DNA of 63,579 nt, filler included, from Reclinomonas americana ATCC 50394 (taxonomy: Eukaryota), in the NCBI GenBank assembly GCA_048213135.1. It is 4 parts of 3 records of this genome, joined end to end, with 100 filler letters (N's around TTAATTAATTAA, not from the genome) between each part and the next. Parts side by side here need not be neighbours in the genome. Positions count along the whole stretch, not along the records: positions 1 to 22,585 come from PS015198.1; 3 more parts are not named here. One strand, given 5' to 3'. Every line of letters begins with the position of its first letter. Position 1 is the first letter of the stretch. The position numbers were made by a program, and so were the translations under genes. Shown one piece after another: positions 5,964-21,556 of this stretch. The notes beneath the pieces were generated by a model. It was not told where the DNA came from, searched no databases, and saw only the letters and a list, made by a program, of their open reading frames with translations.

Positions 5964-8900
5964 ATGGCCTCTCGTCGACCTCCTCCTCCACGCCCTCACT
6001 CCACAACAACAACAACTCCTTTGCTGCCAATGTCGGCCTCTTCTCTGTGCGACGACGACAAGAGGGCAGACATGATGCTCATCGACAGCAAGCAGCATGT
6101 GACGATGCCAGTGCTGATGATGATGCATTCCTCCTCTCTCTCCATCAACATCAACGATGATGATGATGAGATGAAGAAGAAGAGCGCATTGGGGTCGTCT
6201 GCTCCTGCGATGGCGAGGCGACGAGTGCCTCTCTCCTCTTCTTCTTCTTCTTCCACGTCTGTCACCGCCATCAGTGTCACTGCTAAGAAAGGTGTGTGTG
6301 TGTGTGTGTATGTGCATCTTCATCTCTCTCTTTACTTGCGCCTGTTGCGCTTGTGTATTGCCGTTGTGCTCTTTGTGCCTTTCATGTGGCCACAGCTGTG
6401 CGTCCTCCTTCCCTCCCCCTCTGTGTGTGACTGCGTTGGGCTCCACATTTTCCTCTCAATGATATGCTGAATGATGCTGATGGAGAGTGCATCGTTTTTC
6501 TCCTTCTTCTTCTTCTTCTTCTTCTTNNNNNNNNNNNNNNNNNNNNTCTCTCTCTCTCTCTCTCTCTCTCTCTCTCTCTCTCTCTCTCTCTCTCTCTCTC
6601 TCTCTCTCTCTCTCTCTCTCTCTCTCTCTCTCTTGCTGTCTTTGTGTTCTCGCGTCACGTGTTGTCTCATCTGGATGGTGCATATACACAGCTATTCACC
6701 AGGAGCACATGGAACACACATCGATGGAAGGCATCGTCGAGGTACAGGACTAGTTGATGCGTGTCAATCCCAGATGAGCTTGTCTCTTACTGCTCTCCCT
6801 TGGCATGATTGTACAGCAACGCGCGAGGAGTCAGCGAGTCGACTCGTCTCTGATGGATCACAGCGAGGACTTGCCTGCACGTGATTCAGTTGAGACATCG
6901 GTCCGCAAGCGTTCTGTGGAGGTGAGCTCCGATGTGGCACGCGTCTCACGTGCCTCTCGCTCGTGCATCGCAGTTGACACCTCTGATGCTTTCCCTTCAT
7001 TCTCTGCAGGTGGATGCATCCAGCGAGGACGAGCTTGCGCCAAAGAAGAAGAAGAGGAAGGTGTGGATTCTCTGTCGCTGACATTGTTGTGTGTTTTCGT
7101 CAATCTGCACTTGGGTTCATTTGTGTCAATGATGCATACTGTGGGTTCACAGACTCGAGCTGCGAAAGAGCGAGAAGAGTTGAGCGCAGACGATAAGCTG
7201 TTGCTGAACAAGCTGCTTGTTGCGTGCGCATGCTCTCTGCGACAATTGCAACCCACCTTGCTCCTCCTTTCTCGTCGATGCACTCACCATTCTTACTGTG
7301 TCACTCGCAGCGATGCAATCGAAAGAGAGTTCTGGTGAAGGCATTTGGCCTGATGGCACCCATCGTTCAGCGATCCACTGTCATCCACCATCAGAGTGTT
7401 CTCTTTGATATTGCATGTGATGACTGCGGGATTCCTTTGTCGGAGTCGGGTCGCTCGTTGTCTCCCGTCAAGTGTGCATTCAGCAAGAGACTTGGCGTGA
7501 GTGCCGGTCATTCACGCCACTCAACGCCCAAAGCAGTGGAGGGTGTGCTCCAGAGCGTGAGCAACTACATCGAGGTGAGTGTGCATTTTGCCTGTGAACG
7601 ACTGTTGCATGTGAACCAACATGCAGGTGATTGCACTGTGCAGATGAGCCAGCTCAGTGGCGTGGCTCTGGTAGATGCTGTCGAAAGACCACTGATTGTG
7701 GTGGATGAGCGTGGGCATTCGGAGGTGCATTGTTTTGCATGATCTTCAGTGCCTGTTATGATCGTGTCCATTGATCTTCACCCTCGACCTCGTGTTACAG
7801 GAATCATGGAAGAAACTGCGTTCGCAGAACAGGAACATGATTGACCAGCTTCTGCCATTTGTTAAACAGGCCACGGATGCGTTGCGCGAGTGTTATGGTC
7901 TCATGACTGCTCTGTTTCGAACCAATCACCTCACTGAGGTTGAGATAGCACGTGCCGTCACGTGGTGCCGATCGAAAGGTCTGCAATCTCATACCGCTGT
8001 TGGTGTTGCTTGCACTGGCGTTGACCAGCACCACGCAGAATATGGCGATGTGAAGGTGGTGGACGAGGAGGAGGAGGAAAATGACGGAGAGGGTGATGTC
8101 GTCAAGTTCGAAGACGATGACATCAAGGTATGCAGCAATAGTGTACGAGCAACAAAAGCTGCGGGCGAGCAAGTCTTCGTGGACTTGGTCGACCATCGAT
8201 ATCTTGTGCGTTCACAGGCGGATGCGGGGAGTGACGATGACGGAGAAACAAAGTCGAGCAAGGTACGGCGATGCCAGTTTATGTTTATGGTTGGTGAGGC
8301 AGGTGTTGATTGTGGATGTTACACGGGGTATGCACTTGCAGCGCCTCAAGAGTGGTCGCCGTGTGCCGGATGTGGATTTGAGCAAGGACGAGCAGATGGT
8401 GCTGGACAGACTGCTTGTTGCGTGTGTATGTCCACAACACCTCAGCAAGGCAGAGTGATTGACTCAGCCATGTCTTTGTCTGTCATAACACCTGCGCGTG
8501 TGTGCGTACATGTGTGCGAACAGCGATGCAACAAGAAGAAGATACTGGTGATGGCATTCGGCATCATGGCGCCCATTGTGAAGACATCCGCAGTCTTGCA
8601 TCATCAGCGGGTTCTGTTTGAACTCGCCTGCACGGAGTGTGGCATCCCTTCGTCAGGAGCTGGCTCTCCGTCATCAGCAGTAATGGAAGCATTCGGCAAG
8701 AGTCTTGGCAAGGTCGTCGAAAGGGCACGCTGCAACGCGCCCAAGTCTGTTGAAGGAGTGCTCCAGAGCGTAAGCAAATTCATCGAGGTAAGCAAATGTC
8801 TGTTCTGTCTATCCCGCGCGACTGGAATGTGAGCCAACATCGATGCATGTGCAACTCTGCAGAAGGGTGAACTGCGCGGTGCTGCTCTGGCGGATGCCAT

Positions 8901-20800: not shown

Positions 20801-21556
20801 GTTCTCTCCCAGCTTGCCTGTGACGAATGCGGAGTGCCATCGGAGGGACCGGGAAGTCTATCATCTGCAGTCTTGTCTGCATTTGGCAAGAGGCTTGCCA
20901 ATAGTGCCAACACGGCACGCAGCGAGACGCCCAAGTCAGTTGAGGGCGTGCTCGAGAGCGTGAGCAAGTTCATAGAGGTAAGTGTTAACGCCTTTTCACT
21001 TCCGATCGTGACGTTCTGTTGACTGACTTGAGTTCAATACATACGGGACCATTAGAAGAGCGGTCTTCGAGGAGCTGCGCTGCTGGATGCCGTCGAAAGA
21101 CCACTGGTTGTGATTGACGATTGCGGCTACTGTGAGGCATGTCTCCTTGATGTGTGGTTCTGTGAATCGATGTTAGCTTGCTTACTATGCGTATTCTCGG
21201 TTGGTAGGAAACAGCAAAGTCAGCAAGGAAGAGCACCGTGCCAAATGCTCTTCTGCCATTCGTCACACAGGCTATGCATCTGCTCCACAATTTCCCAGGC
21301 CTGCTGGCCGCTCTGCTTCGAGATGGTTGCCTTTCGAAGGCGGAGATTGCTCGTGCTGGTGAGTGCTCCAAATGCAACCATCTGCGAGCACCTGGTTGTT
21401 GTTGCATGTCGTGCCATCGTCAGCACTGACGCGCATGATGCAGTGCGTGGTGACAAGAAGCCGATGAAGATGGAGGTGGTGAAGAAAGAGGAGGAGGAGG
21501 AGGAGGAGGAGGAGGAGGAGGAGGAGGAGGAGGAGGAACAGGACGAGGACATGTAG
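14855..21556 (+). CDS. Uncharacterised repeat-module protein, paralogue B: 5 tandem modules; gap at 15136-15487
   Basis: Colinear with paralogue A from the ATG (MAARRPPPP) to EDM-stop. 264-nt core exons at 16278-16541, 17488-17751, 18597-18860, 19651-19914 and 20714-20977. Confidence 0.8.

Follow-up and report, generated by a model that had tools for sequence, protein, structure and literature searches.

Two tandem paralogous genes in Reclinomonas americana ATCC 50394 (GenBank assembly GCA_048213135.1) encode eleven copies of a module that is, as far as sequence comparison can tell, a domain with no detectable relative and thus far a lineage-restricted repeat family. The genes occupy positions 5964-21556, on the + strand, of a window of 63,579 nt, by which we mean the whole stretch of DNA analysed here, filler included. 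Judged from the exon order, intron positions and intron phases that the copies share, the modules are shown to have originated by duplication of a whole multi-exon cassette. The best explanation of the locus as a whole joins a paralogous gene pair, cassette duplication and a product that would act in the nucleus as a scaffold for nucleic acid or chromatin; we give this combined reading a probability of roughly 0.4.

Organization of the eleven units

A first-pass annotation, made from the sequence alone, had described the region as a tandem gene pair carrying 11 copies of an unrecognised module in units of ~1.05-1.2 kb, bounded by positions 5964 and 21556. This layout holds. There are 11 copies of the cassette, six in gene 1 and five in gene 2, all on the + strand, and the spacing from one core exon to the next is 1054-1213 nt; position 5964 is the first ATG of the open frame of gene 1, and 21556 is the last base of the gene 2 stop codon. 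When unit 5 (11594-12640) was compared with the window by blastn, the matches were confined to 7307-21365 and were all on the + strand, and all 11 instances of a short core motif in the window fall inside the repeat region. Tandem Repeats Finder reported microsatellites only and missed the module array because the longest period that it considers was 500.

The cassette consists of five exons: A (57-75 nt), core (264 nt), C (81 nt), D (148-175 nt) and an acidic exon E (113-143 nt). This order is present in nine of the eleven units, so that the proposal of one exon series common to every unit stands for these nine and fails for units 1 and 7, in which D and E are fused into a single 327-nt exon followed by an additional 45-nt acidic exon. 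The constant core length is likewise true of ten units, the core exon of unit 4 being three codons shorter at 255 nt; each of the eleven core exons has cag| in front of it and |gt behind. Units 6 and 11, the last of each gene, have a shorter D exon and end in a poly-Glu tail and a stop codon. The four exons A, core, C and D together encode about 193-199 amino acids in most units, 272-275 in units 1 and 7, and 177-185 in units 6 and 11, and the acidic linker adds 36-47 amino acids after the module; the figure of ~200 amino acids in the first-pass annotation was therefore an understatement. Its picture of beads on a string is apt, as conserved modules alternate with acidic linkers along both products.

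In gene 1, unit 1 (7153-8262) comprises A at 7153-7218, core at 7311-7574, C at 7644-7724, the fused D+E exon at 7801-8127 and the extra acidic exon at 8218-8262. Unit 2 (8342-9410) follows with A at 8342-8416, core at 8524-8787, C at 8863-8943, D at 9030-9204 and E at 9268-9410, and unit 3 (9473-10471) with A at 9473-9535, core at 9626-9889, C at 9958-10038, D at 10119-10293 and E at 10353-10471. Unit 4 (10550-11535) has A at 10550-10612, the short core at 10683-10937, C at 11028-11108, D at 11183-11354 and E at 11417-11535; unit 5 (11618-12599) has A at 11618-11680, core at 11748-12011, C at 12098-12178, D at 12253-12424 and E at 12481-12599. Unit 6 (12674-13639) closes the gene with A at 12674-12736, core at 12804-13067, C at 13146-13226, the short D at 13293-13440 and the terminal poly-Glu exon with the stop at 13521-13639.

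In gene 2, unit 7 (16110-17229), the partner of unit 1, has A at 16110-16184, core at 16278-16541, C at 16610-16690, fused D+E at 16767-17093 and the extra exon at 17185-17229. Unit 8 (17311-18378), the partner of unit 2, has A at 17311-17385, core at 17488-17751, C at 17830-17910, D at 17997-18171 and E at 18236-18378. Unit 9 (18441-19436), the partner of unit 3, has A at 18441-18503, core at 18597-18860, C at 18929-19009, D at 19090-19264 and E at 19324-19436, and has lost the last cysteine of the conserved C...H...C..C pattern. The two remaining units belong to the same clade as unit 4 (type 4): unit 10 (19502-20509), with A at 19502-19564, core at 19651-19914, C at 20002-20082, D at 20157-20328 and E at 20391-20509, and unit 11 (20590-21556), with A at 20590-20646, core at 20714-20977, C at 21056-21136, D at 21208-21358 and the terminal poly-Glu exon with the stop at 21444-21556.

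Gene models and splice sites

Exon ends were set from coordinate-labelled alignments of paralogous stretches together with the reading frames; for gene 2 the exons of gene 1 were carried over by pairwise alignment, with a check of frame and splice sites in the resulting model. The repeat region has a GC content of ~53%, many N gaps and short introns. Gene 1 (5964-13639) has 34 exons and 1606 codons, with a TAG stop at 13637-13639, and 33 introns, of which 30 are GT-AG and three GC-AG; in the model built from these coordinates every junction is canonical and there are no in-frame stops. Gene 2 (14855-21556, + strand) has at least 29 exons and a TAG stop at 21554-21556. Its first exon, with an ATG at 14855, enters an N gap at 15136-15487 and is followed by 28 more exons with at least 1263 codons, separated by 27 modelled introns (25 GT-AG and two GC-AG). 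The spliced frames are thus open over 4818 nt in gene 1 (34 exons) and 3789 nt in gene 2 (28 modelled exons).

All 60 modelled introns end in AG, 55 of them beginning with GT and five with GC. They are 56-107 nt long, save the first intron of gene 1, which measures 400 nt and contains a (TC)n run and a 20-N gap. Perfect (TC)n tracts occupy the first intron of each gene, at 6547-6633 (43 copies) and 15488-15592 (52 copies), and both adjoin assembly gaps. Fifty introns are in phase 0 and ten in phase 1, the latter being the D>E introns of nine units and the first intron of gene 1; in 50 of the 60 cases the frame would be lost if the intron were retained.

The five GC donors all belong to the C>D intron of the type-4 units 4, 5, 6, 10 and 11 (11109-11182, 12179-12252, 13227-13292, 20083-20156 and 21137-21207, respectively, + strand). 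No single alternative GT donor for this intron keeps the frame in all five units, and one GT-to-GC change inherited through the later duplications seems, from the distribution of these donors, to explain all of them. Exon A of unit 11 is exceptional in another way: at 20582-20583, where the ten other units have the usual acceptor AG, it has AA, and an AG located 6 nt downstream keeps the frame and would drop two codons.

Each gene begins with four non-repeat exons, the second to fourth of which are 90-93% alike between the genes. In gene 1 this part spans 5964-7060 (+ strand; exons 5964-6291, 6692-6741, 6817-6921 and 7010-7060); alignment with gene 1 places the counterparts in gene 2 at 14855 to at least 15135, 15651-15700, 15779-15883 and 15970-16017, also on the + strand. 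The N-terminus of each product is of low complexity, with a Lys/Arg cluster. In gene 1 the exon at 7010-7060, just ahead of unit 1, encodes the cluster PKKKKRK, similar to a nuclear localisation signal of the classical type. This N-terminal part had no match in Pfam, and no hydrophobic N-terminus was seen by eye in its translation.

Coding status and selection

Purifying selection on the modules, suggested in the first-pass annotation, is borne out by the ratio of nonsynonymous to synonymous divergence (dN/dS). By the Nei-Gojobori method dN/dS lies at 0.33-0.45 in all five unit pairs compared between the genes, with dS at 0.23-0.37, and the pooled value is 0.39 (dN 0.130, dS 0.332; Fisher p 4.6e-20). 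Older unit pairs within the genes have dN of 0.24-0.39 against dS of 0.67-1.25. Length changes point the same way: alignments between the genes contain 11 gaps in 3772 exon nt and 50 gaps in 1959 intron nt. Of the exon pairs, 22 of 28 have the same length and the other six differ by 3, 6 or 9 nt, while only 10 of 26 intron pairs are equally long and 11 of the 16 unequal ones differ by a length that is not a multiple of three. When the divergence of the introns was applied to the gene 1 coding sequence in neutral simulations, the result was a mean of 13.3 stops, and none of 500 runs was stop-free. The GC content at third codon positions (0.62) equals that of a neighbouring gene for a TPR protein. 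Given fully open frames, a dN/dS of 0.39 and few exon indels, both genes are therefore, on the evidence of their sequences, real multi-exon coding genes under moderate purifying selection.

The argument originally put forward for such selection, that exons are kept while introns diverge, is valid only for the old unit pairs, in which exons are 70.2% identical and introns, at 56.0%, come near to shuffled sequence (53.2% for exons and 48.0% for introns in the shuffled controls). Between gene 1 and gene 2 it fails, with an identity of 85.7% in exons and 84.7% in introns, and constraint is visible there in the indels and dN/dS instead. At synonymous sites the two genes have diverged about twice as far (0.33) as they have in their introns (~0.17; 6640-13650 compared with 15599-21568), and identity is patchy, reaching 95-98% in the C>D and D>E introns of the third unit and 81-86% in the core exons. 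This patchiness may reflect gene-conversion tracts or constraint on the short introns.

Duplication history

Introns had been proposed to have duplicated along with the exons, and the alignments agree. From one end to the other, unit 5 can be aligned with units 4, 6, 10 and 11 at 78-81%, and the introns of young pairs are 73.5% identical compared with 50.8% after shuffling; since the young units align over their full length, introns included, whole cassettes were evidently copied. Protein identity between units is 46-64% across types, 66-77% inside the type-4 group and 70-83% between positional partners. In the tree, the pairs 1/7, 2/8 and 3/9 are each supported at 100/100, and units 4, 5, 6, 10 and 11 are joined at 99% support, with their internal order unresolved. 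Over 5.9 kb the two genes are colinear at 82%, and there is a second register of alignment offset by one unit.

These relationships show that the modules originated when a cassette of five exons and five introns was duplicated in tandem, and that unit types 1, 2, 3 and 4 were already present in the ancestral gene. The whole gene of ~7.8 kb (about 5815-13650) was next copied in tandem, after which the type-4 units came to number three in gene 1 and two in gene 2. By the branching order and the divergence values, the multiplication of units is older than the gene duplication, and none of these duplications is recent. The description of the family as being under active expansion was consequently overstated: the genes themselves stand at the dS values given above, and only the type-4 unit number differs between them.

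Searches for relatives

The domain had not been recognised at the outset, and searches of Pfam, PDB, sequence profiles, metagenomes, viral contigs and the ESM Atlas gave no relative. In Pfam, neither the core, C and D exons nor read-through A-core-C pieces, in which the in-frame introns are translated, had a match at E up to 10. A 113-residue frame piece that begins at 7762, at the end of the intron before the D exon of unit 1, and runs into that exon gave two rows at E 0.1 and 0.16, far under the cut-offs. The PDB sequence search returned no match, with one row at E 0.2, and a word-based search of longer proteins found nothing for the core exon or the D-exon alignment. Pattern searches of metagenome contigs gave 415 matches, and 38 came from viral contigs; none was confirmed by tblastn. 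The ESM Atlas offered unnamed bacterial clusters at 0.89, under the lead level of 0.9, and no usable named match.

A profile of the 11 core exons, searched against 1.84 billion representatives, had a single hit (E 2.8e-4). We judged it spurious because the protein found repeats a short, unrelated motif 11 times.

Predicted structure

Structure prediction was carried out on single exons rather than on the whole module. The best AlphaFold model of the core exon (predicted local confidence, pLDDT, 80.5; predicted template modelling score, pTM, 0.69) has helices at residues 4-18, 21-26, 28-39, 51-71 and 76-87, and the model of the D exon (pLDDT 80.0) has helices at 4-8, 15-28, 30-38 and 44-56. The module of ~195 residues is thus predicted to be mostly helical. 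Fold searches with the core and D models gave weak, generic helical matches only, the best E for the core model against PDB in Foldseek being 6.6. A run with the core, C and D pieces folded together had a score of 0.00, one chain being under 30 residues.

Neighbouring genes

The other genes in the window look functionally unrelated to the module gene pair, to judge by their domains. They include a frame for a 2OG-Fe(II) oxygenase (26838-28553, + strand, 571 codons; PF13640, E 2.3e-7), a protein kinase domain fragment (32449-33321, + strand; PK_Tyr_Ser-Thr, E 4.5e-21) and the TPR gene (58879-62619, + strand), an uninterrupted frame of 1246 codons with ~20 TPR_10/TPR_12 repeats (E about 1e-194). 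The TPR gene is intronless, unlike the adjacent intron-dense genes. Several related frames with NHL-like repeats are located on the minus strand at 42863-50425, one of which (48038-48613) matches NHL at E 7e-4, just under the cut-off; they look like another exon-module array. Five minus-strand open frames inside the repeat region itself were tested and had no match in Pfam.

Discussion

What could be the role of a protein built of five or six such modules? A suggestion comes from the distribution of charge. The core exon has a net charge of +2 to +9 in all eleven units and the A exon of 0 to +4, so that A and core together carry +4 to +12; the C exon is slightly acidic, the D exon near neutral, and the linker or tail encoded by E has a net charge of -6 to -21. 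The whole proteins have a pI of about 5.8. The basic first half of each module, formed by A and the core exon, would bind polyanions, for example DNA or RNA, while the acidic linkers would compete with or regulate this binding, or else hold basic partner proteins, and the presence of five or six modules per chain would permit bridging. By analogy with proteins of similar charge architecture, our best guess is that the product serves in the nucleus as a multivalent scaffold of nucleic acid or chromatin. We place it tentatively in the nucleus because of the one basic cluster and the charge pattern.

Several observations weigh against this interpretation. All splice junctions are predicted, and this applies to the five with a GC donor and to the displaced acceptor in unit 11 as well. 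The libraries in which no relative was found are poor in protist proteins and lack even the gene pair's own protein, which weakens the negative result. Of the five AlphaFold models made for the core exon, four are poor (pLDDT 51-63), and only single exons were folded. Finally, in terms of substitutions the exons are no better conserved between the genes than the introns are, and a dN/dS of 0.39 signifies only moderate constraint.

The strongest rival assigns the module to protein-protein interaction, within a scaffold that would be cytoplasmic or structural (cytoskeletal or flagellar, for instance) and whose acidic linkers would be mere flexible spacers. Helical repeat modules with flexible linkers are a generic arrangement, no nucleic-acid-binding family was matched in the Pfam searches, and the generic helical matches of the fold searches suit such a domain. 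Against it stands the alternation of basic half-module and strongly acidic linker in all eleven units, together with the Lys/Arg cluster, a combination that we take from general knowledge to be typical of nuclear proteins. We consider this alternative possible, if doubtful.

A second proposal, compatible with a nuclear role, is that each module binds zinc or another metal through the Cys...His...Cys-x2-Cys pattern of the core. Residues C2, H27 and C36 of the core are invariant in all eleven units and C39 in ten, and they are among just 20 invariant columns. The one unit without C39 is unit 9, however, and at E up to 10 the exons had no match to a zinc-finger family, the lone row for zn-ribbon_14 (E 0.035) falling in intron-encoded residues. 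In the AlphaFold core model, moreover, C36 and C39 lie within the helix 28-39 and H27 is nine residues upstream at the start of the helix, an awkward placement for a single site. Metal binding appears unlikely.

The possibility with the largest consequences is a double histone fold, highly diverged, in each module: the core exon would form one helix-loop-helix-loop-helix fold and C+D the second, and five or six histone-like pseudodimers would follow one another along the protein. As described in a review (PMC13088155), the second fold of such proteins packs on the first in the same chain as an intramolecular pseudodimer; sequence similarity to histones is usually very low, and multidomain proteins other than histones may contain the fold. 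Members such as the Sos H domain, SPT3, ABTB2 and the archaeal and viral histone doublets (PMC13088155) have two helical halves per chain. The helix pattern 28-39 / 51-71 / 76-87 of the core model fits a histone fold, histone folds are frequent among the weak structural matches to the core exon, at scores below a convincing level, and the D-exon helices 15-38 and 44-56 could represent a long central helix followed by the third; the module is also basic in its first half. No histone-type Pfam profile was matched at E up to 10 by the core, C and D exons or the A-core-C pieces, a result with which the fold is still compatible given the low similarity usual in the family.

Other evidence speaks against this idea. 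The putative central helix of the first fold has only 21 residues, and the rows for TFIID and SAGA owe the identity of their chains to entry titles alone. The second half of the module, unlike that of double histone fold proteins, has no histone-fold signal, histone-fold entries making up only two of the 50 rows for the D-exon model, and the two halves are mutually dissimilar (hhalign probability 0.3%). A series of five or six units with acidic spacers is not among the double histone fold members listed in PMC13088155. We regard the double histone fold as improbable. Its furthest extension, a nucleosome-like particle in one polypeptide, unique to the lineage, that would wrap DNA or mimic histones by means of five or six extremely diverged double histone folds with acidic spacers, is a very long shot on the models available.

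Least probable of all is a decaying or non-functional duplicate pair that makes no useful protein, for although one acceptor (unit 11) and one conserved cysteine (unit 9) have been lost and exon and intron identity between the genes is equal, 8.6 kb of modelled coding sequence lacks any stop or frameshift, which none of the 500 neutral simulations reproduced, exon indels come in multiples of three only, and dN/dS is significantly low (0.39, p 4.6e-20).

Provided that the genes are expressed, their module is a domain without detectable relative that was amplified both within genes, to 11 copies, and between genes. Confirmation of the weak histone-fold signal in the complete module would raise the importance of the family greatly. 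For the present it is a further example of the lineage-specific repeat families of protists, well documented, with a function that is a guess, and of moderate interest unless the fold proves histone-like.

Comparison with known systems

Tandem basic DNA-binding boxes joined to acidic tails are a feature of nuclear architectural proteins of the UBF / HMGB type. The putative nuclear scaffold resembles these in its charge architecture, in which a basic module followed by an acidic linker recurs five or six times: basic helical boxes in tandem with an acidic tail are the counterpart of the basic modules and acidic linkers described here. The likeness has its bounds, as an HMG box has ~75 residues against the ~195 of our module, an acidic segment follows every module here and is found only at the C-terminus in proteins of the UBF / HMGB type, and no HMG-box profile matched in the Pfam searches of exons or A-core-C pieces.

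The mode of growth has its own parallel. Repeat proteins are known to expand by duplicating multi-domain or multi-exon blocks, as exemplified by the super-repeats of nebulin (PMC1553488). There, too, a block larger than one exon has been duplicated in tandem within the repeat body, with compatible exon phases. The duplicated block of nebulin contains several known domains, whereas the block in R. americana corresponds to one domain spread over five exons. The locus thereby provides a clean worked example of a five-exon domain multiplied as a cassette with its splice sites and phases kept.

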